Positions 12,201 through 51,215 of a stretch of DNA of 61,346 nucleotides are shown here, in pieces (position 1 is the first letter of the stretch; every line of letters begins with the position of its first letter). The stretch covers positions 1 to 61,346 of the forward strand of contig JALSYX010000038.1 in NCBI GenBank assembly GCA_027071805.1. The letters are read 5' to 3'. This stretch comes from Sulfurimonas sp. Lineage in GTDB: Bacteria > Campylobacterota > Campylobacteria > Campylobacterales > Sulfurimonadaceae. Made by a program: the position numbers and the translations under genes. The notes under the pieces were generated by a model. That model worked only from the letters and a program-made list of their open reading frames with translations, had not been told where the DNA came from and ran no database searches.

Positions 12201-13409
12201 TTAATCTAAATACGCTTCTTCTAAGGCAATAAGGTCTTCAAAATTCTCACGTCTTCGAATCAGTTTTGCCTTTCCACCCTTGAGTGCCACTTCTGCACTT
12301 CTTCCGCGGGTGTTATAGTTACTTCCCATGCCAAAACCATAAGCCCCCGCACTATGCACAACAATTAAATCATTATGATTTAGAGCTGGCAACGGATAAT
12401 CTTTTGCAAAAAAGTCACCACTCTCACACACAGGACCAACAATATCTACAGCTCGCTCTTCACCTTGTGCATCTGTAATCGCTTCTATTTTATGGTATGC
12501 CTTATAGAGTGCTGGGCGAAGTAAATCGTTCATTGCACCATCAACAACAACAAATTTCTTCTCTCCATTTTGCTTTTCATACAAAACTTTACTCACAAAG
12601 TAACCTGCGTTTGCTGTTAAAAAACGACCCGGTTCGCACAAAATTGTCACATCAAGTGCTGTTAAACATCCCAAAATGGCTTGTGCATAATCATAAGGCT
12701 CTATCAAAGTTTCATCATCATAGCGAATACCTAAACCCCCACCAATATCAAAAAATTTCAAATCAATTTTAATCGTTGCAAGTGAACGTACCAAATCTGC
12801 TACTATCTCTGCTGATTCTCGAATAGGTGTCAGTTCTGTAAGTTGTGAACCAATGTGAAAATGGATGCCTACAGGGTCTAAATACTCTGAGTTATTTGCC
12901 ATAATATACATACGTTTTGCCGTGTTTAAATCGACCCCAAATTTATTGTCATGCAAACCTGTTGAAATATACGGATGTGTTTTTGGGTCAATATTTGGAT
13001 TGACTCGTATGCTAATGCGAGAGACACGTCCTAACTCTTTTGCTATCATCTGCACACGACCAAGTTCTGCTTCGCTTTCTACATTGATATAGAGAATATC
13101 TTTTTCTATCGCTTCACGAATTTCATCATCACTTTTGCCGACACCAGAAAAAATGATTTTATAAGCAGGAATACCTGCTTTAAAGGCACGACGTACTTCA
13201 CCGATAGAAACACAGTCTGCACCACTTCCGAGTTTTGCAAAGTGCTGCACTACACTCAAATTTGAGTTTGCTTTTACCGCATAGGCAACAATTGATTTTC
13301 GACCTTTAAAGGCTTCTTTGAGTTTGTTATATTGTTCTGTCATATAATCTAGGTCATAGATATAGAGGGGAGTTTTAAATTCGTCTGTTAAACTTCTAAA
13401 ATCAATCAT
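12201..13409 (-). CDS. lysA: Diaminopimelate decarboxylase
   Basis: YAVKAN, HFHIGSQ, DIGGG, EPGR, GPVCESGD, GAYG; ATG at 13409 preferred over TTG at 13421. Confidence 0.97.
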   Translation of the reverse strand: MIDFRSLTDEFKTPLYIYDLDYMTEQYNKLKEAFKGRKSIVAYAVKANSNLSVVQHFAKLGSGADCVSIGEVRRAFKAGIPAYKIIFSGVGKSDDEIREAIEKDILYINVESEAELGRVQMIAKELGRVSRISIRVNPNIDPKTHPYISTGLHDNKFGVDLNTAKRMYIMANNSEYLDPVGIHFHIGSQLTELTPIRESAEIVADLVRSLATIKIDLKFFDIGGGLGIRYDDETLIEPYDYAQAILGCLTALDVTILCEPGRFLTANAGYFVSKVLYEKQNGEKKFVVVDGAMNDLLRPALYKAYHKIEAITDAQGEERAVDIVGPVCESGDFFAKDYPLPALNHNDLIVVHSAGAYGFGMGSNYNTRGRSAEVALKGGKAKLIRRRENFEDLIALEEAYLD

Positions 13410-13463
13410 AAAATTGTCCAAAATATTTTTGCTTGATTTTATCTAAAAAGTGCTTATAGCTCG

Positions 13464-14537
13464 CTAAGATTTTCTTATATTATAATGTCTATACTGATGA
13501 AGAGCAATCAAGAAGAGCACTATTATAGGTGCAATAATCCCCACTTCACTAGAAATCGTTTTATTTATAGCAAGTTCTGTGAGCATAAAGAGGATGCCCC
13601 ACACCAAAAGTGTAGATAAAATAGCCACAAAACTAAAAATAGAAACATTTAAAAAACGCACACTAATCGGTACAAAGAAGAAAATAATGACGACAAGAGA
13701 AGGCACAAAAAATGGATAAATAAATATCTTATAGAGAGCCCCTTTGATACTCGTTGTATCAATATTTTGATTCTTTAAAAGCATCACAGCATCAAAGGCA
13801 TTTTTGATGGTGAAGTTTACTTTTCCTTCATAGACCTGATCGAGCATTTTTGGTCTAAAGCCTTTTAAAAGTGTTAAATCTTTCTCTTCACTCACTGTAA
13901 TCCCTAAAGAATTAAAATCTAAATCAACAGGTTTTTTAATAACATCTGCCACTTTAATATGCCATGCCTCATTTCTATACACTGCTTCTTTAGCAACAAT
14001 CACCTCTTTAAGTGAGTCATTTTTGACACTAAAAATCCGTACATTGAGGGCTTTTTCTTGCAATGGAAGCAGTTTGGAAAAGTAAATATATTTTCCTTCA
14101 TAGGTGAAAAAAAGGTCGCGTGTCGGGCTTAAATACTGCGAATAACTCCGAATATTATCTGAAAATTCATTTGCCCGTGCAAAACTTGAAAAGGAGTGAA
14201 AACTAATATAGAGCATTGTAATCAGTGTTGAAACAACAACAAAAGGGCGCAGAACATCGACTCGTGTATATCCTAAAGCATAAAAAGAGACCAAAGCATT
14301 GGAGCGGATTAACAAAATTTTCGTTGAAATCATCGAAAAAATCAAGGACAGAGGCACAAGCATATCAATCGAGTAAAATGTTTTATACACCAAATAAATC
14401 AGTAATAAGTTTGCAGATGAGGAGAGCTGCTCAGAGTACTGCATATAATCAAACCCTACCATAAATAGTAACAGTGCGGTGAGAATGATAAAAAAATATT
14501 TTAAATAGTGTAAAGAGATATACTTAAATAACAACAT
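13464..14537 (-). CDS. LptF/LptG family LPS export permease
   Basis: 3 TM + periplasmic beta-rich domain + 3 TM; RSNALVSFYALG resembles the LptF/G coupling helix. Confidence 0.85.
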   Translation of the reverse strand: MLLFKYISLHYLKYFFIILTALLLFMVGFDYMQYSEQLSSSANLLLIYLVYKTFYSIDMLVPLSLIFSMISTKILLIRSNALVSFYALGYTRVDVLRPFVVVSTLITMLYISFHSFSSFARANEFSDNIRSYSQYLSPTRDLFFTYEGKYIYFSKLLPLQEKALNVRIFSVKNDSLKEVIVAKEAVYRNEAWHIKVADVIKKPVDLDFNSLGITVSEEKDLTLLKGFRPKMLDQVYEGKVNFTIKNAFDAVMLLKNQNIDTTSIKGALYKIFIYPFFVPSLVVIIFFFVPISVRFLNVSIFSFVAILSTLLVWGILFMLTELAINKTISSEVGIIAPIIVLFLIALHQYRHYNIRKS

Positions 14538-39067: not shown

Positions 39068-39077
39068 AAAGCAAATC

Positions 39078-39109
39078 TTCATAAAAAGTTCATAATCTTT
39101 TGATACAAT
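39078..39109 (+). promoter_or_regulatory. TTCAT-N6-TTCAT response-regulator box plus extended -10 (TGaTACAAT)
   Basis: Direct repeat with 11-bp period at 39078-39093, 10 nt before TACAAT (39104-39109). Confidence 0.7.
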
Positions 39110-39139
39110 TAAATCATTAATTATCTAGTGGAGGAAAAG

Positions 39140-40222
39140 ATGTTTCATACTGCGATTCAAGCTTTAAAGTACAATAAACTCAAAACTTTTCTTATCTACT
39201 TGAGTTTAACTTTTTCTATTGCTTCTATCTTTCTCATCAGTTCCATTGCACATGGCATCATTGGAATGTATAGCACTATGCTTCAAAATGATGGCAATAT
39301 CATTGTCACACAAAAGAAAATTGCCGATACTTTTTTCTCAAATGTTGATATTCATCTCCTTGATGCTATTAATAAACTCGATAATGTCTCTTCCGCTTCA
39401 GGCATGATTTTAGGAGCTTCTCCTGTTGCCTCTTTACCTATTGTTGCCATTTATGGTGTCACACAAAATCGTTTTAAAAACTATAAACTCCTCAAAGACC
39501 ACTACCCTGCTCTTGGAGAAGCCCTTGTTGGTGCTTCTATTTACCAAAAATTACAAGACAAAAAGAGTATTCAAATTGCCAATAAAACTTTTAAAATCTC
39601 TGGTGTTTTCACAAGTGATATAGGCTTTGAAAATGGAGGCATTGTTCTCAACATCAAAGATGCTGGCACTATTTTTAACAAAAGTGCTTCCATCTTACTT
39701 ATCAACACTAAGCTCAATGCAGACATCCAAACAATTATCAAAAACATCAAAAAACTTGATGCAAACATCGATGTCAAATCAACACAAAATTTTGTAAAAA
39801 ATTACAATCAATTTAAGATTATTGAAACTTCAGCCCATGTTATTTCCCTTTTAGCCTTTATTATGGGGCTTATCAGTGTAGTGAGTATCATGAGCATTAC
39901 TGTGCATCAAAGACAAAACGAATTTGGTATCAAACGAGCATTGGGTATTTCTATGCAAAAAGTTATTTTCTCTTTACTCAGTGAAAGCCTTCTCTTAGCC
40001 TTTGTAAGTTTTTTCAGTGCTGCTCTGCTTGCACAAACACTTCTTAGTATCATCAAAGAGATTCCACAACTCCAAGGCTATGTCAATGGAAGCATCTCTT
40101 TGGAACTTTTTTTATGGATTTTTCTCACCTCACTTGCGATGACACTTTTAGGCTCTATTTTACCTGCCTTCAAAGCGGCAAAGACAGATCCTATCTTACT
40201 CATTCAAGGAAATTTTTCATGA
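39140..40222 (+). CDS. MacB/FtsX-type ABC transporter permease
   Basis: TM1, periplasmic domain, 3 TM; QRQNEFGIKRALG, LPAFKAAKTDP; GGAGG SD. Confidence 0.92.
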   Translation: MFHTAIQALKYNKLKTFLIYLSLTFSIASIFLISSIAHGIIGMYSTMLQNDGNIIVTQKKIADTFFSNVDIHLLDAINKLDNVSSASGMILGASPVASLPIVAIYGVTQNRFKNYKLLKDHYPALGEALVGASIYQKLQDKKSIQIANKTFKISGVFTSDIGFENGGIVLNIKDAGTIFNKSASILLINTKLNADIQTIIKNIKKLDANIDVKSTQNFVKNYNQFKIIETSAHVISLLAFIMGLISVVSIMSITVHQRQNEFGIKRALGISMQKVIFSLLSESLLLAFVSFFSAALLAQTLLSIIKEIPQLQGYVNGSISLELFLWIFLTSLAMTLLGSILPAFKAAKTDPILLIQGNFS

Positions 40223-40839
40223 TAAGTGCTATAAACATTTCACACCGTTATCAAAATGACCTTGTCTTACACAATATCTCCCTACATATTTTCAAAGGAG
40301 AGTTTGTTGTCTTTACAGGTGAGAGTGGTAGTGGGAAATCTACCCTACTCTCCATTCTCTCAACACTTTTAACACCAAGTGAAGGGAGTTTACTCTTTTT
40401 AGGAAAAAGAGTAGAAGATATTGCAAATATTGATACCTTTCGAAAAGAAAACATTGGTTTTATTTTTCAATTTCATTATCTCATTGAGTATCTCACACTA
40501 AGAGAAAACCTCACAATCGCCAATGAAAAAGTTACAAATACAGACATTCATACACTCACCCAAAGACTTGGAATTACAGAACTTTTAGACAAATACCCTA
40601 ATGAAATCTCTGGAGGTGAGAGACAACGTGTGGCAATAGCCCGCGCACTCATTAACAAGCCAAAAGTCATCTTTGCAGATGAAGCCACAGGAAATTTAGA
40701 TTCACAAAATTCTCGTATTGTCTTTGAACTTTTTCAAGAACTTGCACAAGAAGGAACAACTATTATTGCAACAACACATAACAAAAAACTCGCAAAATTT
40801 GCAGATACACGCTACGAGGTTACCGATGGACAACTTTAA
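40219..40839 (+). CDS. ABC transporter ATP-binding protein (LolD/MacB-type)
   Basis: GESGSGKST, GFIFQ, ISGGERQRVAIARAL, ADEATGNLD, TH; ATGA overlap with the permease stop. Confidence 0.95.
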   Translation: MISAINISHRYQNDLVLHNISLHIFKGEFVVFTGESGSGKSTLLSILSTLLTPSEGSLLFLGKRVEDIANIDTFRKENIGFIFQFHYLIEYLTLRENLTIANEKVTNTDIHTLTQRLGITELLDKYPNEISGGERQRVAIARALINKPKVIFADEATGNLDSQNSRIVFELFQELAQEGTTIIATTHNKKLAKFADTRYEVTDGQL

Positions 40840-42382
40840 TACTTTTATACACAGACATTTTATGTACTCTGTAAATTTTTTACTTTTAGGCATTTTCTTT
40901 GGGTTTATCTACTCCATTAATCTTTTAGGTTATTTTATAGATGCCCCTACTTTAAACCCCTACAACATGCGAGCCCTGCATATCTCGCTTATGCTCTATG
41001 GGTTTATTACACTCATGCTCTCCATGTTACCTTTTTTACTCATCAACAAAGAGGTAGGCAGCTCAAAAGAGGGTTTGCATTTTCTCAATCTCTTTTTTAT
41101 ATTTTGGTATATATTTTTAGTTTTTATGGTGGTTTCACTCCTTTTTGGCAATCATCGAGGCCTCGCATTTTATGATTTTAATTATATTCTTAACTTTATT
41201 CTTGCGTTTGCAGGACTCTTTTATGCCATTGCTCTGTATAAATTTATCCGCCTCTACAAAAGCATTCCTTTGTGGGTCAAAGTCTCTTTTCGTATTGTAC
41301 TCATCTCGCCGATTGCTTTGCTTATTCTCATGAATCCTATCATTGGTCAAGTGGAGCGAACTGTCACAGGTCCTCATGGAGACAACACTTTAGGCATGAG
41401 TTTTGCCCTCATTCCACTCTACTACCTCATTATTAAACTACTCAATACAAAAGAGTTTACTCCAAGATGGAACATCCTCTGGATTATCCCTCTTATTTAC
41501 TATATTGGGACTGTTTTGTACCGTACTTTCATAGCTGATCTCACCTATAATGAAGAGTGGGTCGCACAGTACATGACACTTTTATATATTCCTATTCTCT
41601 ACCGTTGGTACAAAGATTCCGATAGCACGGGTTTTGCAAGAAAAGCCCTGCTGACTTCCATTCTTGGATTTTTATTTGTTGATATAGAGGGCAATATTCT
41701 TTTTATTCCCTCTATCCGTTGGGTTTTTCACAGAAATGATTTGGTTGTTGCCCATTCACACATTGCCCTTGGAATTGGGGTCTTTTTTATGGTGATTGCT
41801 ATGTTTTCTCAACACATACAAAGCCTGCATAAAAAATCTTTTTTTAATCTTTTTGTGGGTGGACTTGTTGGTATTTTCTTTGTTTTAACCCTCAGTGGTT
41901 TTGTGCAAACAGATATGCTGCATTTTACAACTACACAAACAATGTGGCACTGGAGAACTTTTTTTGGCATTTTTGTCTTAGCCAGTATTTTTCCACTTAT
42001 ACAGTGGAAAAAACACTATACAAAACAAGAACTTTATAATCTTTTTGGATTTTTCAATGATGGAGTGGGTGGCATTATTTTACTCCTCCTCGGTTCTTTT
42101 CTCTATAAAAAACTTGGATTTCATTTCGATAGTAGCTACAGTTATGTTGTTTTTGCATTTGTAAGTATGACCGGGATGATTCATTTTCTTGCCCTTTACT
42201 ATAAAGACCATAGTGCTATTTTAACTTTCGTCACAGCAGTGATTCGCATGAGTATCAGCAGTATCTTTTTTGCACTTTATGTGACACACTCGCTTGGTAT
42301 TGAAGCAGCTTTGATTGCCCTTTTTGATTTTACTTATGCAAGTATCTATTTTATCTTTTTTCATAAGGAGGAAATATTATGA
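40826..42382 (+). CDS. Divergent heme-copper oxidase subunit I-like (CcoN/NorB-related) membrane protein with extra C-terminal TMs
   Basis: RALH (H52), G-LAFYDF loop, H184...YY, EG..FHRNDLVVAHSH (H310/H312) align by eye to CcoN; no HH motif. Confidence 0.75.
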   Translation: MDNFNTFIHRHFMYSVNFLLLGIFFGFIYSINLLGYFIDAPTLNPYNMRALHISLMLYGFITLMLSMLPFLLINKEVGSSKEGLHFLNLFFIFWYIFLVFMVVSLLFGNHRGLAFYDFNYILNFILAFAGLFYAIALYKFIRLYKSIPLWVKVSFRIVLISPIALLILMNPIIGQVERTVTGPHGDNTLGMSFALIPLYYLIIKLLNTKEFTPRWNILWIIPLIYYIGTVLYRTFIADLTYNEEWVAQYMTLLYIPILYRWYKDSDSTGFARKALLTSILGFLFVDIEGNILFIPSIRWVFHRNDLVVAHSHIALGIGVFFMVIAMFSQHIQSLHKKSFFNLFVGGLVGIFFVLTLSGFVQTDMLHFTTTQTMWHWRTFFGIFVLASIFPLIQWKKHYTKQELYNLFGFFNDGVGGIILLLLGSFLYKKLGFHFDSSYSYVVFAFVSMTGMIHFLALYYKDHSAILTFVTAVIRMSISSIFFALYVTHSLGIEAALIALFDFTYASIYFIFFHKEEIL

Positions 42383-43350
42383 GACAGATGGCACTGATCC
42401 TTTTTGTAGGATTTGAACTCTCTTACTATTTACTAATTATTCAAACAGGAGTTACGGAGTACTTACACTCTGACTTAATCCGTATTGCTCCTCTTGCGTT
42501 TGGTGGTATTTTGGGTTCTTTTTTTATCTCTTTTTTAAAAAATCAGACAAAAAACACAATCACCCTCATACTTCTTATACAGTTGCTTATCAGTTACTTT
42601 TACCCAAACCTCTCTGGGCTCATGCTTTTTATACTTGGGCTAAGTGCAGGAGCCATTGCTCCTTTAATGCTTCAAATGCTTAAAAGAGCTTCACTTGTTG
42701 GACTGGGTGCAAGTCTTGGACTCTCTTACAGTCTCTCTACTGCACTTTTTAATTTTGATGTCAGTGCAAGAGGCACCCTTGCCCTTGCTCTTACTGCACT
42801 GGTCTTACTCACTTCTCGATTTTTACCAAAAGAAGCAAAGAAAAGTGCATTCCAAGGCGAGCACTCTTTGCTTGTGATGTCTTTATGGATATTTTTAGAC
42901 TCTGCACTTTTTGAAACACTCTCACGAGATACCTTTATCCCCATTTGGCGTTTAGATATGAGTGCCGAGATTATTTTCTTTCATCTTTTAGGCATTGTTT
43001 TAGCCCTTACACTCAAAGTCTCTCAAAGAAACAGAGAAATAGTGACATTTTCGCTCTTTGCTTTGAGTTATTTTCTCTATTTTACCAAAGAGGCACTGCT
43101 TTTAGCAGCTATTTACCCTCTTGTAATTTCATATTACAATGTGCTTATTTTACAAACATTACGACAAAAGGAGTTCAAAACCATTAGTATTTCTATGATT
43201 TTTATCGCTTGGATCGCTTCAGGTGCAGGATTGTTTGTTGCACTACAAAACGCAACATTTATCATGCCAATTTTTATTATCTTCATGCTTGCAAGATATA
43301 TTTACACAACATTTTTAAAGGATTACCAATGTTTAAATTATTCATCATAG
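42379..43350 (+). CDS. Polytopic membrane protein, MFS-like
   Basis: ~11-12 hydrophobic segments in two similar halves; ATGA coupling to the upstream gene. Confidence 0.65.
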   Translation: MRQMALILFVGFELSYYLLIIQTGVTEYLHSDLIRIAPLAFGGILGSFFISFLKNQTKNTITLILLIQLLISYFYPNLSGLMLFILGLSAGAIAPLMLQMLKRASLVGLGASLGLSYSLSTALFNFDVSARGTLALALTALVLLTSRFLPKEAKKSAFQGEHSLLVMSLWIFLDSALFETLSRDTFIPIWRLDMSAEIIFFHLLGIVLALTLKVSQRNREIVTFSLFALSYFLYFTKEALLLAAIYPLVISYYNVLILQTLRQKEFKTISISMIFIAWIASGAGLFVALQNATFIMPIFIIFMLARYIYTTFLKDYQCLNYSS

Positions 43351-43850
43351 CCCTCACATCAACACTCTTAAGTGCAGGGGCACTCACATTTACCCAGGGA
43401 ACTATCAAAGCACATACAGAAGTTTTTGGTGATAGCGGTATCGACCCATTTACCACACAAATCACCTCTGATTTAACACTTGGCACAGACCCGACACAGC
43501 TGCGTGGAACCATCAGTGTACCAAGTATAAGTTTAAAAAGTGAAAATGAGGGACGAGATGAACACATGCACGAAGCAATGCATTGTGATACACAAAAACA
43601 GATTACAGTGCACATCAATAGTGTTAAAAAACTCCAAAACAACTACCAAATCGCTGCCGATTTAACACTCAATGGAGTAAACAAAAAAATTGTCTCTCTT
43701 GCAAATATCAAAGAAGATGCTGGCTCACTTGTACTCGATGGAAACTTCACTATCAAGATGACTGATTACAACATAGAACAACCCTCTATGCTCTTTTTTA
43801 CAGTTCGTGATGCAGTAGATGTACATTATAACTTAGAATATAAAAAATAA
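43329..43850 (+). CDS. YceI family periplasmic lipid/quinone-binding protein
   Basis: Signal peptide, RDEHM, LTLNGV, TDYNIEQP, VRD motifs. Confidence 0.9.
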   Translation: MFKLFIIALTSTLLSAGALTFTQGTIKAHTEVFGDSGIDPFTTQITSDLTLGTDPTQLRGTISVPSISLKSENEGRDEHMHEAMHCDTQKQITVHINSVKKLQNNYQIAADLTLNGVNKKIVSLANIKEDAGSLVLDGNFTIKMTDYNIEQPSMLFFTVRDAVDVHYNLEYKK

Positions 43851-43851
43851 T

Positions 43852-44301
43852 ATGCATTATATATTTTTAATCTTACTCTTGTTAGGTTCATTAGATGCAA
43901 ATGATTTTGCAAAAAATGAGCCAATACAAGCATTTACTCTTCTTGATCAGTTTGAAAAACCACATACTGTAGATAGTCATATAAAAACCATTATTATAAG
44001 TTTTGAAAAATCAACAGGGGCAGATATGAATGCATTTTTAAATGCACATCAGCCAGACTATTTACAAAAACATCGAGCTGTTTTTATTGCCAATATTTCA
44101 GAAATGCCCTCTTTGATTACAAAACTTTTTGCTATGCCAAAAATGAGAAAATATAAACATACCATTTTGATTATCAATGATGAAGAGAACCATCAATTTG
44201 CATATCAAGAAGATAAAATCACAATTTATAAAATTGAGGATGGTAAGGTAAAGTCCATTCATTTTGTCAATACTTCAAAAGAAGTAGAAAAACAATTATA
44301 A
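43852..44301 (+). CDS. Secreted thioredoxin/AhpC-like fold protein without cysteines
   Basis: Signal peptide, FTLLDQFEK N-terminal redoxin-like motif, zero Cys. Confidence 0.6.
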   Translation: MHYIFLILLLLGSLDANDFAKNEPIQAFTLLDQFEKPHTVDSHIKTIIISFEKSTGADMNAFLNAHQPDYLQKHRAVFIANISEMPSLITKLFAMPKMRKYKHTILIINDEENHQFAYQEDKITIYKIEDGKVKSIHFVNTSKEVEKQL

Positions 44302-44302
44302 T

Positions 44303-45019
44303 ATGGAAATCCCTCCAATTACAACTCTCAATGTGCCTATAAACCATCCTTCTTTGGATGGTTTTTCTCTTTTACACTTAAGTGATTTGCATATCAACAA
44401 AAAGACAAGTTTCGAGTATATGCAAGCACTTGTAAACAAATGCAAAGAGGTTGATTGTGAATGTATTATCATCACTGGCGATATTATTGACACACAAGTA
44501 AAGTTTATTACTCCACAACTCCACATTCTCAATCAACTTTCAAATGTTTACTATATCAGTGGCAATCATGACATTTTTTATGGTTTACATGCACTCAAAA
44601 AAGTCTTAGATAATTTTACTTTTTTAGATAATGCTTTAGCAAAAATTCGCTTTAAAAATAGAGATATTTATATGGTAGGTTTAGCAGATAGATTCTCAAA
44701 ATTTTTTCATGTCAAAAGAGATGTTGAAAAAGTACTCCAACTTGCAAAAAACAAAGAGCCACTTCTATTTTTAGCCCATCAACCCAAAGATTATAAAATT
44801 GCCTTACAAACAAAAGCTTCACTTCTTTTATGCGGTCACACCCATGGCGGACAAATTTGGCCTTTTCACTACCTCGTACGACTTGTGCAACCCTACCTCA
44901 GTGGTTTACACTACAAAAACAAGATGGCAATCTATGTCAATTCAGGCTTAGGAACATGGGGCATAGACTATAGATACAAAGCCCAAAGTGAAATAACTCT
45001 TTTGCAGTTTAAGACTTAA
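44303..45019 (+). CDS. Calcineurin-like metallophosphoesterase (YkuE-like)
   Basis: SDLH, TGD, GNHD, AHQP, GHTHGGQ, VNSGLG. Confidence 0.92.
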   Translation: MEIPPITTLNVPINHPSLDGFSLLHLSDLHINKKTSFEYMQALVNKCKEVDCECIIITGDIIDTQVKFITPQLHILNQLSNVYYISGNHDIFYGLHALKKVLDNFTFLDNALAKIRFKNRDIYMVGLADRFSKFFHVKRDVEKVLQLAKNKEPLLFLAHQPKDYKIALQTKASLLLCGHTHGGQIWPFHYLVRLVQPYLSGLHYKNKMAIYVNSGLGTWGIDYRYKAQSEITLLQFKT

Positions 45020-47033
45020 AACCTTTCAGCTTTTTCACAAAAGAATGATTTAAAATCTTTTCATGGTATTTTTTTTCTTTCTCTTGTACTTGTATATCTT
45101 TTTCTTTATGTAAAACACACTGTGTAAGTTCATCTAGTTTTGCTTTTCTGTGTGTTAAATTTTTATACTTTTGTAGAATTTTTTTCACATTTTGTATATC
45201 ATTATTGATACAAAAAATTTCCGTTTTCATAATGAGTTTTTTCCAATATGCTTCAAGTAATAGAGTAATTTTTGCATTTTGCACACTCTCATGTGTGTCA
45301 ATGAAGTTAAAACACTCTGCAAACTCTTTTTTTTCATATAACACATACAATTTTTTTGCATCTTCTAATCGTCTGCTTAAGTGCTCTACTATCTTTTCAG
45401 AGAGATACTCTTGCATCTCTTCAACGGCTTCTTGTGCTGCATCAAAATCTTCATTGTCTATCAAGTTTTCAATAAAGACGCGTTTTTCCGCTCGAATATC
45501 TCGTACATTTAAGTCTATTCCAAGTGAATTAACATATTTTGCAAAGTGTTTATCTTGGCGGATAGCTTCTTGCAAACCCTCTACATCTTTTTTCTTGAGT
45601 AAATCAAGGTAGGGTAAAAAACTCTCTCCATGATTTAAAAAAAGTTTCACAATGCTATTTTTTGATTTTACTCGTATATAGGTACTCAGTTGTACATAAG
45701 CACCCTCTTTATTGCCATGAATAAGTAGCTCTTGTGCCTGTGCCATCTGCTCTTTAAACTTTGCTTCCATCACCCGAAACTCTTTTGTCTTTTTCAAAAT
45801 AGGGTAACGCTCTACCAAACTATAAGCAGGAATATAATCTCTTTGTATCACTAAACCTTGAAACTGTTCATACCTGTCAAAGGCTTCCAAAACTAGCTGT
45901 ATCTCTTTTTTCTTTACATGAATATCTTTAAAAAAATCCACTGTTTGTAAGGCAAATTCTTTATTGCCTGAGGGTATCTCTTCGGCTACCCGATTTAAAA
46001 TATTTTCGTAAGTCGCTTCTAGTTTTCTATAGGCAGCGGAGTGTAAAAGTTGTGGCTCTTTGCGCACAAGTTCATATGCCTGATCAAAAGCTCCGTGTAA
46101 AATAAGTGATTCAAGCTGTTGGGGTGTTGCCAAGTTCACTCGTACTATGCTGTTATCAACCAAAACAACTACTAACACAAAGGAAGAGACAAGTACCATA
46201 GACTGCACTTCATATTCAAAAGAGAGATAATTTGTACGGATATTTTTCTGCGTTTTGACATTGACAAGACTTATATACTCTTCATTACCGCAAACGAGCA
46301 TATATTCCCTATTGTCCAAAAAAAGCATTTGTTTTATTTTTGTTAAAGGAATATCAAACTTTTTATAGTCATTTAAAGCATTTATATTCACAATTCTGCT
46401 ATCGCCATTTTCATGGGCTGTGAGGACATATGTATCATCTATAAATTGAATATCATTAATGGTCGTGCTTGCATTTACAAATATTTTCTGTGTGATTTTT
46501 GTATAAATATTGACTTGTGAGAGATCCCCTCTATTTCCTGAAACTATCATTGTGGCATCTCTAAAGGCTATTGCGGTTATCCCTTTTGTTCTTTTTTTAA
46601 AAGTCTCAAAAAGTGTATATGTTGCCAGTAAAAAATTGCTATTGTAGGTGTATTGTAAAACAGTATTATCCAGCATGCCTACAAAAACATAGCGTCCACT
46701 TGCATCAAAAGAGAGGAGTGTCGCTTCTGATGGTAAACGGACACGATTAAAGACTTTAGCAACAACTTGACGACTTCTGTTTTGTAACAAGGTGTCAACA
46801 ACCACTAAAGTATCATGATCAATATAAGCAAGTTTTCTTTTGTCTTGAGAAAATGCGAAAATAATGCTTTTTTCTTTTTTTGCTGTACGAATAACAGTGC
46901 TTGTTTTTAAGGTCTCAATATTAAGAAGTTTTAATTCATTGCTTAATGTCGTGTAAGCAATAGTATCTTCACTGACAGCTTCAACACGAGTAACACCCTC
47001 TTGAGTACTTCTTATTATTGTTTTTTCAAACAT
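45009..47033 (-). CDS. WD40-like beta-propeller plus helical-repeat protein
   Basis: N-terminal ~300 aa of blade-like repeats (FAFSQDKRKLAY, LSFDASGRYVFVG), C-terminal all-helical repeats; no signal peptide. Confidence 0.7.
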   Translation of the reverse strand: MFEKTIIRSTQEGVTRVEAVSEDTIAYTTLSNELKLLNIETLKTSTVIRTAKKEKSIIFAFSQDKRKLAYIDHDTLVVVDTLLQNRSRQVVAKVFNRVRLPSEATLLSFDASGRYVFVGMLDNTVLQYTYNSNFLLATYTLFETFKKRTKGITAIAFRDATMIVSGNRGDLSQVNIYTKITQKIFVNASTTINDIQFIDDTYVLTAHENGDSRIVNINALNDYKKFDIPLTKIKQMLFLDNREYMLVCGNEEYISLVNVKTQKNIRTNYLSFEYEVQSMVLVSSFVLVVVLVDNSIVRVNLATPQQLESLILHGAFDQAYELVRKEPQLLHSAAYRKLEATYENILNRVAEEIPSGNKEFALQTVDFFKDIHVKKKEIQLVLEAFDRYEQFQGLVIQRDYIPAYSLVERYPILKKTKEFRVMEAKFKEQMAQAQELLIHGNKEGAYVQLSTYIRVKSKNSIVKLFLNHGESFLPYLDLLKKKDVEGLQEAIRQDKHFAKYVNSLGIDLNVRDIRAEKRVFIENLIDNEDFDAAQEAVEEMQEYLSEKIVEHLSRRLEDAKKLYVLYEKKEFAECFNFIDTHESVQNAKITLLLEAYWKKLIMKTEIFCINNDIQNVKKILQKYKNLTHRKAKLDELTQCVLHKEKDIQVQEKEKKYHEKILNHSFVKKLKGFKS

Positions 47034-47054
47034 TACCTGCTCACTTTCACTTCA

Positions 47055-49082
47055 CTACAATAGTAGTCTAAACAACACCAAACTTGCTCGTGTTCCCGAA
47101 CCTAAACCCTCACTCTCTAAAATAACATCAGCATCAAGCAACTGTGCCAATTTTTTACTCAAAGAGAGTCCTAAACCACTGCCCTTATATCTGTTTTCAT
47201 TCTCTGTATTTACCTGTGTAAAATCATCAAACAAAGCGGATAAGTCTTCTTGTTTTATTCCTATACCACTATCTATAATTTCAAGAGCTATTGTATCATT
47301 TTTTACACCAAGTTCTATGCGAACAAACCCTTTTTCTGTAAATTTTATCGCATTGGAGAGTAAATTAATCACAATTTGCTGCACAATTTTCGCATCTGTA
47401 TACAGATGAAAATCCTGTTCTTTTTGTATACTTATTTCAAAGGCTAAGTTTTTATCTTCAGCAAGTGGCTGGAGCATACTATAACTGTTATGTACTACCT
47501 CTTGAAGGTCTGTTTGCTCACAATGCACTTGCATCTTCCCTGATTCTATTTTTGCAATGTCTAAAATCTCATTAATCATATTGAGTAAATAATGTGCAGA
47601 AGATTCAATATTGGCGATAGTATCTTGCTGTGCTTCACTCATATTTTCATAAGTTATCAAAAATTGACTCGAACCAATGATAGAGTGTAAGGGTGTACGC
47701 AACTCATGCGACATATGGGAAATAAAAGCAGACTTTGCATTTGAGACTGCTGTAGTTCTTTGAATCAAGGCTATTTTTTCAAGTTGCAGCATAATCATAT
47801 TTGCAATAGAGTGATAAAATTTTTCTTCATTCGTATCATCAAAATTCTCTAAAGCAAGCATAAGTGTTCCAAAATAATCTTTTTTATTGGCTTCATAATC
47901 TTTAACATACAAATCAATCCCATTGGATACCTTTGTTGTGACAAATGCCAAATCATGCCCTAAGTTCATTTTCCTAATCTCCTGCATCGCCACATCAATA
48001 CACTCTTTGGCATCCTGCGTTTGTATAATGCTGTTAAAAACTTCTATGAGTTGTATAAAACGCTCTAAACGCACCCTGTTTTCTCGTTCCAAAGCTTCTA
48101 AAGCCTCAGATGTCACAAAGAGCATATCATTAAAAGAGTCTGTAAGTGTCCCTATTTCATCGCTTGATTCTACAGCTAGAGTATGCGAGTAGTCTTGCGT
48201 TTGCTCTATATGCTGGAGTGCCTTTGTGAGTTTTTCTATAGGATGCACAATACTTTTTGAGTATCTTAATGCCAAAAAAATGATAACAACAATACCAAAA
48301 AGTGCCACATAAAGCATAAAAGAGATGAAATCATACATAAACTTCAAAGCCAAACTCTTATCAACACCATAGACAAGATAGTAATGTTCAAGCATGCCAC
48401 TGAGTTGCTCATAGACAATCACATGCTCTTTTGTAATCACATCTGCACTCTCTTTTTCTAAATGTACCTGTAATTTTGTTGTATCACCCAGGTAAAAATC
48501 TGACTTGTTTGTAATATAAGAGTGCATATATGCTTCATGTGCGAGATATCTATCTAACTGTGTTAAATCATAGCGAAGGAGCAAATAGCCTACAATTTTT
48601 TTTGGATTAAAGGAGGCATGTATTTGTGTATAAAGAAAGAGTTTCCCCTTTTCAATGGTAAAATTCTTTGCTTTATCAAAAGAAAACATAAACTGTGTGT
48701 TGCGTAAAGTATCTTTACTTGCAGCCACAATCTCACCAGAGGGGCTCACCGCCATCAAGCTTACACCTGCTCCTAAATCACTCGCTTTTTTTGCGAGTAA
48801 AATAGAGACACGTTTATCAATATCTTCTGCTAAGATATCATCCATCAAATCTAAAGATGCCAAAAAATGCAACTCTTTTTGTAAAGATTGTAGATGCCCA
48901 TCCATCAAACCTGCAATGGTTTGCACCCTTTTATACTGTTGCGTAATGGATTGCTGGACAATCTTACTTTGCATAGAAACAACCGTGTACGTAAACAGCA
49001 GTGCAAAAGGGAAAAGACTCACAAACAAAAGATTAAAAAGGAGTTGTAAACGCAGTGATTTTTTGATTTTAGCAAAAAACAT
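47055..49082 (-). CDS. Sensor histidine kinase (periplasmic sensor, HAMP, HisKA, HATPase)
   Basis: Two TM, DEIGTL HAMP, SHELRTPL, NLLSNAIKFT, DSGIGI, GSGLGL. Confidence 0.95.
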   Translation of the reverse strand: MFFAKIKKSLRLQLLFNLLFVSLFPFALLFTYTVVSMQSKIVQQSITQQYKRVQTIAGLMDGHLQSLQKELHFLASLDLMDDILAEDIDKRVSILLAKKASDLGAGVSLMAVSPSGEIVAASKDTLRNTQFMFSFDKAKNFTIEKGKLFLYTQIHASFNPKKIVGYLLLRYDLTQLDRYLAHEAYMHSYITNKSDFYLGDTTKLQVHLEKESADVITKEHVIVYEQLSGMLEHYYLVYGVDKSLALKFMYDFISFMLYVALFGIVVIIFLALRYSKSIVHPIEKLTKALQHIEQTQDYSHTLAVESSDEIGTLTDSFNDMLFVTSEALEALERENRVRLERFIQLIEVFNSIIQTQDAKECIDVAMQEIRKMNLGHDLAFVTTKVSNGIDLYVKDYEANKKDYFGTLMLALENFDDTNEEKFYHSIANMIMLQLEKIALIQRTTAVSNAKSAFISHMSHELRTPLHSIIGSSQFLITYENMSEAQQDTIANIESSAHYLLNMINEILDIAKIESGKMQVHCEQTDLQEVVHNSYSMLQPLAEDKNLAFEISIQKEQDFHLYTDAKIVQQIVINLLSNAIKFTEKGFVRIELGVKNDTIALEIIDSGIGIKQEDLSALFDDFTQVNTENENRYKGSGLGLSLSKKLAQLLDADVILESEGLGSGTRASLVLFRLLL

Positions 49083-49495
49083 TACTCATCACTCCATCTA
49101 TATAAAATATGCAAACCCTTTACTATGTTCTCAAACGAAACATAGCCTATGGCTCCATGCACATTTTTTATAAAAACCTGCATACTCTTTTGCGATTTCA
49201 TACTAATGGGCGGTCTATGCCCAAGGTAGTGTTGGCGTGTCCAGTAGCTTTTGAGATGCGAACGGTTCATATGCAACACTTTTTTCTCAAAACTACTACG
49301 AATAGGATTTCCTAAGGCAAGATTGAGTGGAACAATTTTTGTATCCCCAAGATACTCACTCTTTTTCAAAAAAAGTGCCCGTACTTGATTTTGTGTCAAA
49401 GGTGGTGTTGTAAAAGAAGCCACAACCGCATACTCTTTGGCACTCAAGTCTGTAACAAGCAAAAGAAAAAGGCAGTACTTGAGAAAACGCAGCAT
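49082..49495 (-). CDS. Small periplasmic binding-protein-like (half PstS-type) protein
   Basis: Signal peptide, LTQNQVRALFL, YW...G.RPP, GAIGYV. Confidence 0.75.
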   Translation of the reverse strand: MLRFLKYCLFLLLVTDLSAKEYAVVASFTTPPLTQNQVRALFLKKSEYLGDTKIVPLNLALGNPIRSSFEKKVLHMNRSHLKSYWTRQHYLGHRPPISMKSQKSMQVFIKNVHGAIGYVSFENIVKGLHILYRWSDE

Positions 49496-50496
49496 TAGAA
49501 GAGTACCGATATAGAGCATTGCACTTGATTATTTTGATGCAAGGAGTGCAACTGATACTCCACCTTAAAAGATACTGGATATAAAGGTCGATAGGAGTAA
49601 CCCAAAATCCCAATCTCCTCTTTGATGCCATGTACACTATCATCGTATGATTCCAAACGTAAAACAGCTGCATGCTTTTGGGTGAGTTTATAGACACCTT
49701 GCAAATAGCCTGCATATTTTGTAGTATACACATGGGTTGATTTTTGCGAACCAAGTTCTGCTAAAATTTCCACACTATTTGTCGCATACTTCAGCGATGC
49801 CATATAGTAGTACAGTGATTTTGAAACATTATTAGCAGGGCGACCATCAAAAAAACCAAAATTTACTTTCAGTGCCAAATCATTTTTCTCATAACTCAGC
49901 CCCAATGCATAATGTTCATCAAGTTTATAATTATTGTATGTCGGGTCTAAATCGGCATTATTTTGTGCGATAACATCCACTTTGAAGGTAGCATTGCCAT
50001 AATTTTTATAACTCCATAACAGACCTGTCGTAAATTTTGGAAACAGAAGATTTGTACTTTGTGGTATAGATGTCGTTTCGCGTAAAACATTTATGGGCAA
50101 CAAGTTCCAAAAACCTGCGGGAGTGCTGTATTTTCCTAAAGTAACAGCACTGTTTTCATTAAAATCATAATGCATATAAAGTCGCTCTGTATGCAATGTC
50201 CTATCTTGTGAGCTTGTATGTTTACCTGCGTTTTCATTGTAAAGATAAAAGTTTTTATACTCTATCTCTGCAAGATAAGAAAATTTACTATAAGCTCCAT
50301 AAGAGAGCAGTGCCAAATCATTCAAACGGTATGTGTTGTTCCCATCTATTCCCCGATAATCTGCTGAAAAATAACCCCCAACATAGAGTGGTAACTGAGC
50401 AACCTGCACTCCTTCTCCAAGTATGTATTTTGAGGAAGATGTCTCTGCAAACAGGCTTGAGAGAAGCGAAAAGAGAAGAAGTAGTTTCACAAACAT
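49495..50496 (-). CDS. Outer-membrane beta-barrel (porin-like)
   Basis: Signal peptide, amphipathic beta strands, ERLY..Y, LGKY.TP.G.WN, C-terminal Phe. Confidence 0.8.
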   Translation of the reverse strand: MFVKLLLLFSLLSSLFAETSSSKYILGEGVQVAQLPLYVGGYFSADYRGIDGNNTYRLNDLALLSYGAYSKFSYLAEIEYKNFYLYNENAGKHTSSQDRTLHTERLYMHYDFNENSAVTLGKYSTPAGFWNLLPINVLRETTSIPQSTNLLFPKFTTGLLWSYKNYGNATFKVDVIAQNNADLDPTYNNYKLDEHYALGLSYEKNDLALKVNFGFFDGRPANNVSKSLYYYMASLKYATNSVEILAELGSQKSTHVYTTKYAGYLQGVYKLTQKHAAVLRLESYDDSVHGIKEEIGILGYSYRPLYPVSFKVEYQLHSLHQNNQVQCSISVLF

Positions 50497-50521
50497 ATGG
50501 CAATTCCTTACTATTTTGACT

Positions 50522-50553
50522 ATCCTAACTTTCTAAAATGAAGATATTATGAA
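50522..50553 (-). promoter_or_regulatory. TTCAT-N6-TTCAT box plus -10-like hexamer (TAGGAT) for the porin operon
   Basis: Minus strand TTCAT-aatatc-TTCAT-tttagaaagt-TAGGAT; same geometry as the 39078 box. Confidence 0.7.
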
Positions 50554-51215
50554 GATTTATTTACTTTATACCCAACACCGCGTACATTTTGTATAAACTC
50601 TTTGTTGCCTAATTTTTTACGCAGGTTTTTAATGTGCACATCTACAAGATTGCTATGTTTGACACTATAATTATCTTTATTGATATGTTCACTCAGCTGG
50701 TAACGGGTAAGGACTTGATTTGGGTTTTGCATAAAAAGTTCTAAAAGGTCAAATTCTGCAGCGGTGAGTTGTACCTCTGTATCATCCATAAAAACAACTC
50801 TTTTGACTAAATCAAGCTTGCAGGGTGCTATCTCAATGAGGCTCACTTTTTGTGTACTCTCACGACGAAGTAAAGCTCGAATGCGGGCTAACAACTCCAC
50901 AGAGGAGTAGGGTTTACATAAGTAATCATCTGCCCCACTATCTAAAACAGCCACTCTATCATCGACAGCAGCATTTGCTGAGAGCATTAACACCGGTGTT
51001 TTAATCTCCAAATCACGCAGTTCTTGCAAAAGTGTATGCCCATCGCCATCACCCAAATTCCAATCAAGTAAAATCAAAGCATACATATTTTTATCGATAC
51101 ACTCTTGAGCTTCTTTATAGCCAAAGGCAATATCACAACGATACTTTTCACTCTTTAAAAGTTGGGCTAACTGCTTTGCACTCACCGCATCATCTTCTAC
51201 AATTAAAATATTCAT
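50547..51215 (-). CDS. OmpR/PhoB family response regulator
   Basis: VEDD, LDWNLGDGDG, GADDYLCKPY, winged helix ending VRGVGY. Confidence 0.96.
   Translation of the reverse strand: MNILIVEDDAVSAKQLAQLLKSEKYRCDIAFGYKEAQECIDKNMYALILLDWNLGDGDGHTLLQELRDLEIKTPVLMLSANAAVDDRVAVLDSGADDYLCKPYSSVELLARIRALLRRESTQKVSLIEIAPCKLDLVKRVVFMDDTEVQLTAAEFDLLELFMQNPNQVLTRYQLSEHINKDNYSVKHSNLVDVHIKNLRKKLGNKEFIQNVRGVGYKVNKSS

Follow-up and report, generated by a model that had tools for sequence, protein, structure and literature searches.

Two convergent operons in a Sulfurimonas genome raise the question of whether they form one system, and of what such a system would do. They lie in a window of 61,346 nucleotides (contig JALSYX010000038.1 of assembly GCA_027071805.1; C38 in our numbering), part of a 2.18 Mb genome that is 83% complete and whose nearest named relatives belong to Sulfurimonas. 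On the plus strand, seven genes, here called A to G, form an effector operon. It converges on minus-strand genes for an outer-membrane porin, a small periplasmic protein, a histidine kinase and a propeller protein, which stand behind the gene of an OmpR-family response regulator (Table 1). We found that the locus is two modules joined, the effector operon and a trans-envelope sensor. The joint best explanation, to which we give a probability of about 0.42, is a lipid-repair or lipid-removal operon under a sensor in which the small protein plugs the porin. Taken alone, the sensor and regulon parts of this explanation are, in our estimate, quite likely to be right.

Results

A promoter box shared by the two operons

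Both promoters carry the repeat CTTCAT-N5-(C/G)TTCAT, followed exactly 10 nucleotides downstream by a -10-like hexamer, and the identical promoter-box geometry that had been proposed for the two operons is thereby confirmed. Of 54 distinct sites in the loci that were fetched, 42 have this 10-nucleotide offset. Genome-wide, the bare repeat TTCAT-N6-TTCAT is not enriched (18 matches at spacing 11, like other spacings); hence what speaks for the box is where it lies and that it is conserved. In each of 23 other loci a TTCAT-type repeat stands upstream of A; none of the genes B to G has one before it. The CTTCAT box lies about 55-65 nucleotides before whichever operon adjoins this clade of regulators.

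The regulator falls into a clade of 13 rows that is tied to porin modules (SH-like approximate likelihood ratio test (SH-aLRT) 99, quick tree), and an orthologue is present in 9 of the 32 operon-bearing genomes. The box precedes the operon in 8/8 evaluable genomes with a regulator orthologue and in 1/21 evaluable genomes without one, counts in which related genomes are not independent. Left out were G082, which has the regulator and lacks the upstream region, and G035 and G021, where the regulator was not found and the upstream region is missing. Moreover, a matrix built from other genomes ranks the promoters of the porin, of orf-apbE and of the operon 1, 2 and 3 in this genome. It is likely that the regulator activates the CTTCAT-box promoters of both operons, and the earlier claim that the adjacent regulator controls both gains from the way in which the box tracks the regulator clade. 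Several points weigh against this. Besides the kinship within the counts, the box is present in G056, where no regulator orthologue was detected. When only operon-less loci are used for training, the matrix ranks the operon promoter 5 (porin 1, orf-apbE 2), and column-shuffled matrices give 0-3 matches of at least 20 bits, compared with 4 for the real one.

The third box has the same geometry, is stronger than that of the operon, lies before orf-apbE on contig C222 and is kept in G107 and G499. There, positions 12760-14055 (L202:1261-2556) hold an open reading frame (ORF) for 125 Gln/Ser-rich amino acids and then apbE; a fatty-acid desaturase gene lies directly upstream of this region, and pst-like genes follow a few kb further on. 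In the window, the first half-site of the porin-promoter box (50554-50547) coincides with the last codons of the regulator, K-S-S-stop, and the orthologues at L060, L061, L062, L068 and L070 end likewise. The regulator gene thus carries its own downstream operator. In relatives, lipoproteins with nine CxxCH motifs stand directly behind the box (L061:5018-7297, L070:5366-7147, L198:10996-13257), those of L061 and L070 with the sequence NDLGMHC; we take these multihaem proteins to resemble Methylococcus c553o. The promoters of Arcobacteraceae upstream of A (L003-L026) have an inverted ATGAA-N6-TTCAT and then up to three direct TTCAT (ATTCAT-type) repeats, a geometry that we assume to be CusR-box-like. 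The DccR box of C. jejuni, a direct repeat of TTCAC, may be similar. Generic scans for sigma-70 promoters and terminators stayed at chance level.

Two modules and not one block

The block, 12 kb long, had been described as self-contained. That it is a single, co-inherited system was not supported: one box of the regulon lies on C222, and among 351 genomes of the class C occurs in 28, the small protein in 24 and both together in only 7. We collected 142 operon loci, which left 91 after dereplication at 90% identity and 51 with at least 5 kb on both sides. In 6 of the 91 dereplicated loci, spread over several clades and gene orders, C has a porin or small-protein gene no more than 6.5 kb away. 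Most relatives pair the modules otherwise. In the nearest relative, G499, the linkage is broken, and both halves keep their boxes. The modules are thus co-regulated here, and they are neither self-contained nor obligate partners. In G499 (L001:5738 onward, L196 and L197), F and G are missing at the operon locus and the sensor lies elsewhere; this genome also has a second copy of the regulator on a 2.4-kb contig, possibly from strain mixing.

The propeller, which had been counted as part of the system, was rejected as a component. It adjoins C in 0/91 dereplicated and 0/20 fetched loci, its family is genus-wide (56/61 genomes), and it accompanies the kinase only in G499.

A predicted sensor of porin, small protein and kinase

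The small protein corresponds to one lobe of a PstS-type protein (about 137 amino acids, E 1.7e-4) and has an invariant W-x3-H-x2-G-x2-PP motif; it matched no Pfam family at E 0.1, YfiR included. Members of the porin family match Porin_O_P weakly (7/16), and the periplasmic domain of the kinase has an invariant acidic patch, D81-D82..D89-R91. The predicted three-chain complex of porin, small protein and kinase scored 0.76; the best control, in which the porin was replaced, reached 0.53, and unrelated partners gave 0.00. Runs agreed in at least 91% of contacts, and the partner pLDDT (predicted local distance difference test) was at least 88. The mark for this score is passed by 116/157 solved and 2/215 mismatched pairs and is a rough guide only for three chains and custom alignments. 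In the predicted complex, W93-H97-G100 of the small protein (W-x3-H-Y-x-G) is inserted into the periplasmic mouth of the porin, and a second face contacts kinase residues 78-91 and 156-159. The kinase residues at the interface are more conserved than the remaining domain (0.90 vs 0.62, p=4.5e-5). In addition, the small protein is naturally fused N-terminally to the porin in two proteins (P0317, 477 amino acids; P0318, 456 amino acids), one of them a cluster of five members.

On the model, the small protein is predicted to plug the porin and to bind the kinase. Complex prediction and fusions together support the outer-membrane-to-kinase sensor of the first-pass annotation. Against it weighs that the interface residues of the porin (p=0.17) and of the small protein (p=0.23) show no excess of conservation over the remaining residues.

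The sensor forms a mobile module of its own. Its porin family occurs in 60/151 genomes of the genus, and among the best 17 porin-orthologue loci fetched none has genes A to E. The sensor genes there neighbour multihaem cytochrome lipoproteins, a TlpA-DUF4266-DUF3570-ApbE-DsbD cluster, or genes of the REC-HD-GYP and EAL types. A pair of barrel and half periplasmic binding protein in Caballeronia and Pseudoalteromonas adjoins genes for EAL proteins, methyl-accepting chemotaxis proteins (MCP) or PAS kinases (3/7 plasmid matches examined).

With its OprP-like porin, half-PstS adaptor and conserved phosphodiesterase, the locus could also be read as a phosphate-starvation module scavenging lipophilic organophosphates. 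We consider this very unlikely. The PstS RAAGSGS (R..GSG) phosphate-binding stretch is not conserved in the adaptor, a single lobe that falls outside PstS; no box of at least 12 bits was found upstream of the pstS-like gene of the genome (C222), and a separate OmpR regulator adjoins the pst genes. Moreover, MacB-type ABC transporters extract and do not import.

A haem-copper-oxidase fold with an altered distal pocket

C matches the COX1 profile weakly (E 8.8e-5, below cut-off), and a hidden Markov model of divergent C members matched no haem-copper oxidase (HCO) among PDB sequences. Its predicted fold is that of HCO subunit I over residues 1-397, with four extra helices beyond. The closest fold is cNOR (4xyd; Z 27.0, root-mean-square deviation (rmsd) 4.0, 372 residues aligned), followed by cbb3 (3mk7; Z 25.8); Foldseek gave E about 1e-5. 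The haem ligands H52, H310 and H312 are retained, align with those of CcoN from the same genome and are invariant in 88/88 C sequences. Alignment with this CcoN and with the NorB-like proteins of the genome shows that the H302..D305 motif and the Glu of transmembrane helix (TM) 9 are also retained. C thus has in common with CcoN, NorB and gNOR the 12-TM HCO fold, the histidines of the low- and high-spin haems, the TM9 Glu and the H..D motif before TM10.

The distal side is different. In C, the His-His pair of TM7 is replaced by Y232-R233 (position 232 is Y in 51, H in 13 and T in 13 of the 88 sequences), and in TM6 D186 occupies the column of the CuB histidine, with H184 two residues earlier in a low-confidence loop. 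Unlike CcoN and NorB, C is without the TM7 His-His and has its TM6 His either shifted (H184) or replaced (D186); it also adds four helices and has no subunit II. Judged by the alignment, C lacks the three-histidine CuB/FeB site of cbb3, cNOR and qNOR. Invariant in all 88 sequences are H52, H184, D186, E244, Q248, H302, H310 and H312, and R233 is found in 87. The invariance of H184, D186, E244 and Q248, together with R233, argues that the pocket is new and under selection and not a product of decay. The Asp/Arg pair on the distal side may resemble that of DyP-type peroxidases. Against this weighs the uncertain register of TM6, where pLDDT is below 50 at 171-183 and the register depends on a single MAFFT alignment. 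The C-terminal helices (window 42008-42379) have an invariant D412, R474 and D501 and a near-invariant H453; they matched no Pfam family, and their Atlas leads were all below 0.9. C had no plasmid match, only 69 matches among 1.84 billion representatives, and no member identified outside Campylobacterota among these matches, several of which have no assigned source.

According to survey passages of PMC11214002, no HCO family described has given up its non-haem metal site, and gNOR is presented as the first in which even a single His is replaced. As presented in those passages, gNOR is related to the B family, and in this C differs. The same passages propose that the Asp-for-His site of gNOR supports NO reduction. 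C might be a divergent enzyme for nitric oxide (NO), N2O or sulfide, with the other gene products assembling or protecting it; cNOR is its closest fold, and D186, H184, E244 and E/Q288 could build a new metal site. This appears improbable to us, as the TM7 His-His is gone, no gene for a cytochrome c or CuA subunit was found in the operon at any locus examined, and cbb3, A-type and NorB-like genes are present separately in the genome.

The effector operon across genomes

The operon was found in 26 GTDB loci, in 32/151 genomes of the genus and in 28/351 genomes of the class. Among the 51 loci with sufficient flanks, which come from free-living Campylobacterota, C and D are present in 51, A in 50, B and E in 48 each and F in 35; three rechecked loci with apparent misses did contain A, B and E. 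The gene order varies, and the five core genes remain together. G occurs in 37/51 loci and a NAPE-PLD-like hydrolase in 9/51, with both in 0/51 and neither in 5/51 (the G call of one locus was corrected by tblastn). The NAPE-PLD-like gene, a metallo-beta-lactamase with E 6.7e-42 to human NAPE-PLD, replaces G in other lineages. This swap suggests that a phosphodiesterase function belongs to the operon unit.

The names first given to the gene products were borne out, with F the least certain. Domain matches were obtained for FtsX/MacB_PCD, ABC_tran, YceI, Metallophos, HisKA/HATPase/HAMP/dCache, REC/Trans_reg_C and a WD40-like family, and predicted folds identify C as an HCO and D as an MFS protein; the thioredoxin fold of F comes from Atlas leads only, at 0.90 (YtfJ/AhpC). 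D has a two-domain MFS fold (pLDDT 91; Z 24.5, rmsd 3.3 and 298 residues aligned to EfpA) with invariant E13, D174, E179 and H202. E belongs to PF04264 (64.7 bits, cut-off 23.7) and is the sole YceI found in the genome at its present completeness. G has intact metal motifs and no visible signal peptide. F and the porin had no PDB sequence matches, and the flavinylation motif [ST]GA[ST] was found in none of A, C, D, E, F, porin, small protein, kinase and propeller.

A lipocalin, a membrane-extracting ABC transporter, a small MFS protein, a swappable phosphodiesterase and a two-haem enzyme together fit best with the processing or removal of damaged lipids. We therefore propose, as a probable role of the operon, that it repairs damaged envelope lipids, likely oxidised ones, or removes them. 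A model for this is offered by the pairing of the YceI protein BcnA with the di-haem cytochrome b561 LcoA, which in the passages of PMC9113575 detoxifies lipid peroxyl radicals. The lipophilic cargo that had been suggested from the letters is thus favoured by the MacB-type ABC transporter, YceI and the phosphodiesterase swap, and free haem as that cargo is weakly opposed. Several observations weigh against the lipid function: on a tree with a weak root, only some two changes account for the G/NAPE-PLD swap; in one clade the NAPE-PLD gene runs convergently and lacks a box; and lipid-A genes near the operon are rare after dereplication (eptA 2/51, arnT 1/51). Cytochrome b561 genes near the operon occur only within neighbouring DHC clusters (8/51 loci). 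In G039, the gene for an ArnT-like lipid A transferase (L048:2650-4308) lies directly upstream of an operon ordered D-E-A-B-C-F-NAPE-PLD. In the Arcobacteraceae loci (L003-L026), DUF1924-DHC-cytochrome b561 and eptA-PAP2-dgkA clusters recur nearby.

An HrtBA-like pump for free haem or porphyrin in the membrane, in which C would store or degrade the haem and YceI would accept it, seems improbable. Permease and ATPase are of the four-TM type without an adaptor, HrtBA extracts membrane haem according to the passages of PMC9271180, and A has an invariant Y222 and K226 near the outer leaflet. However, HrtB was absent from the PDB matches of A at E<=10, and, with no direct alignment to HrtB made, the family alignment shows no invariant Glu where TM2 begins and none matching HrtB E219. 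Moreover, C was found in 0/104 and 0/141 genomes of the two largest sampled families, presumed to be host-associated and to meet most haem, and the phosphodiesterase would remain unexplained.

The Arcobacteraceae operon is paired with an unrelated regulator-kinase pair of CusR/HprR type. Its best NCBIfam matches are heavy-metal kinase and regulator families (TIGR01386/TIGR01387; regulator 258 and kinase 240 bits, still below cut-off), against which the regulator and kinase of the window are more distant, with 167/279 and 123/293 bits, likewise below cut-off. The Arcobacteraceae matches favour a regulon for an excess or shortage of metal (Fe, Cu or Mn). In it D would transport the metal, C would be an oxidoreductase that acts on metal through its haem, and the signal for the sensor would be a metal ion or a mineral surface. 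The Arcobacteraceae kinase has an acidic ExxE-like motif, which we take to resemble that of PmrB, and the invariant acidic and His residues of D would also suit a metal. In relatives, multihaem cytochrome lipoproteins and DUF3570-ApbE clusters are encoded behind the box; going by the passages of PMC8238504, they may serve iron assimilation. Such a regulon nevertheless strikes us as unlikely. It leaves YceI, the membrane-extracting ABC transporter and the phosphodiesterase swap unexplained, the Arcobacter sensor shows neither His nor Met conserved in its periplasmic part, and the copper motifs MxxxM/HxxxM are absent from D. Metal could, in addition, be the inducer without being the substrate.

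Layout of the locus

The seven plus-strand genes (39140-45019) overlap or abut, are co-oriented and converge on four minus-strand genes behind the OmpR gene. Gene layout and domain matches agree with the operon structure as first drawn, and the core genes reported on the flanks were found again, ftsH-psd on one side and miaA-ubiA on the other. The GC content is 0.32-0.38 within the block and 0.38-0.41 in the flanks. A fusion of B and C hinted at by long ORFs was an artefact of ORF calling.

Table 1. Features of the two modules, in positions of the window.
Feature	Position	Strand	Remark
Effector-operon box	39077..39109	+	CTTCAT-N5-GTTCAT at 39077-39093; -10-like TACAAT at 39104-39109
A	39140..40222	+	MacB/LolC/FtsX-type ABC permease, 360 amino acids; operon without adaptor or TolC
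B	40219..40839	+	LolD/MacB-type ABC ATPase, 206 amino acids
C	40826..42382	+	membrane protein with HCO fold at residues 1-397 and 4-helix extension
D	42379..43350	+	minimal MFS-fold transporter, 323 amino acids
E	43329..43850	+	periplasmic YceI lipocalin
F	43852..44301	+	secreted cysteine-free protein, likely thioredoxin-like, accessory
G	44303..45019	+	calcineurin-like metallophosphoesterase (YaeI/LpxG-like)
Propeller	45009..47033	-	WD40-like propeller and helical domain; passenger
Kinase	47055..49082	-	sensor histidine kinase: periplasmic dCache-like, HAMP, HisKA, HATPase
Small protein	49082..49495	-	half-PstS periplasmic protein, single lobe; longest ORF starts at 49519
Porin	49495..50496	-	outer-membrane beta-barrel, distantly OprO/OprP-like
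Porin-promoter box	50522..50554	-	CTTCAT-N5-CTTCAT at 50554-50538; -10-like TAGGAT at 50527-50522
Regulator	50547..51215	-	OmpR-family response regulator; start overlaps the miaA stop

Discussion

Under the lipid-repair reading, a cue from outside would enter the porin or alter its shape; this would shift the small adaptor and thereby change the activity of the kinase, as in YfiB-YfiR-YfiN. Extracytoplasmic redox or metal stress would be the most likely inducer. Once phosphorylated, the regulator would occupy the -35 position and switch on the operon, orf-apbE and the porin-adaptor-kinase genes of its own module; its targets in relatives would further include multihaem cytochrome lipoproteins and the TlpA-DUF4266-DUF3570-ApbE-DsbD cluster. 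C would be an enzyme with two b-type haems and no normal CuB/FeB triad, perhaps a membrane peroxidase or reductase with a lipid or quinone as substrate. On the cytoplasmic side, a lipid phosphodiester would be cut by G or by the NAPE-PLD-like enzyme that takes its place. The cleaved product would be flipped by the MFS protein, the ABC transporter would lift it from the outer leaflet and YceI would carry it across the periplasm.

Upstream, this arrangement would work like YfiBNR of Pseudomonas, with which it has in common an outer-membrane protein, a small periplasmic adaptor and an inner-membrane signalling protein, as described in the passages of PMC3375315. Like YfiBNR as presented there, it would belong to a sensor class with modular outputs (kinase, HD-GYP, MCP, EAL). 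It differs in having a beta-barrel instead of a Pal-like lipoprotein and, as adaptor, a half-PstS protein and not YfiR, which is predicted to touch both partners together. Downstream, the operon would work like LcoA-BcnA. Going by the passages of PMC9113575, the LcoA-BcnA-PsrA system likewise links a YceI lipocalin genetically to a membrane protein with two b-haem sites; here, however, the haem protein has an HCO fold and is not a cytochrome b561, a MacB-type ABC transporter, an MFS protein and a phosphodiesterase are added, and there is no aldehyde reductase. With HrtBA, MacB and LolCDE, in the part of PMC9271180 that treats them, the operon has in common a four-TM permease with a periplasmic domain and a separate ATPase. 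Unlike HrtBA, its permease has no HrtB sequence match or invariant Glu ligand and has C, D and E as obligate partners. The ApbE-DUF3570-DUF4266-thioredoxin-DsbD clusters discussed in passages of PMC8238504 stand behind the same box in related Sulfurimonas, whereas here the box precedes orf-apbE and such clusters are not within the window. DUF3570 was not found in this 83%-complete genome, in a search whose control likewise gave no match.

The locus thus falls outside YfiBNR and LcoA-BcnA as well as cbb3/cNOR and PstS. Two of its components, the porin-plug sensor and the copper-less HCO-fold family, appear to be undescribed. No title or abstract was found that describes the operon or a module of porin, half-PstS protein and receptor, in a search that covered neither subscription papers nor supplements. 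The datasets of PMC11214002 might list the family of C.

More broadly, a half binding protein in the mouth of a dedicated porin, acting on interchangeable kinase, HD-GYP, MCP or EAL receptors, could be a widespread signalling class, and C a haem-only HCO branch whose Asp/Arg distal pocket serves a lipid peroxidase in a line that cuts, flips, extracts and carries. We put this combined proposal forward as tentative and, as a whole, somewhat doubtful. In Proteobacteria, the pair of porin and half-PstS protein is annotated as phosphate transport; our data suggest instead that it relays signals from the outer membrane into the cytoplasm, through an interface, an operator and a set of targets that can be named. 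A family without at least two of the histidines retained elsewhere would widen the chemistry of the HCO superfamily and would offer a natural test of what two haems alone can do.

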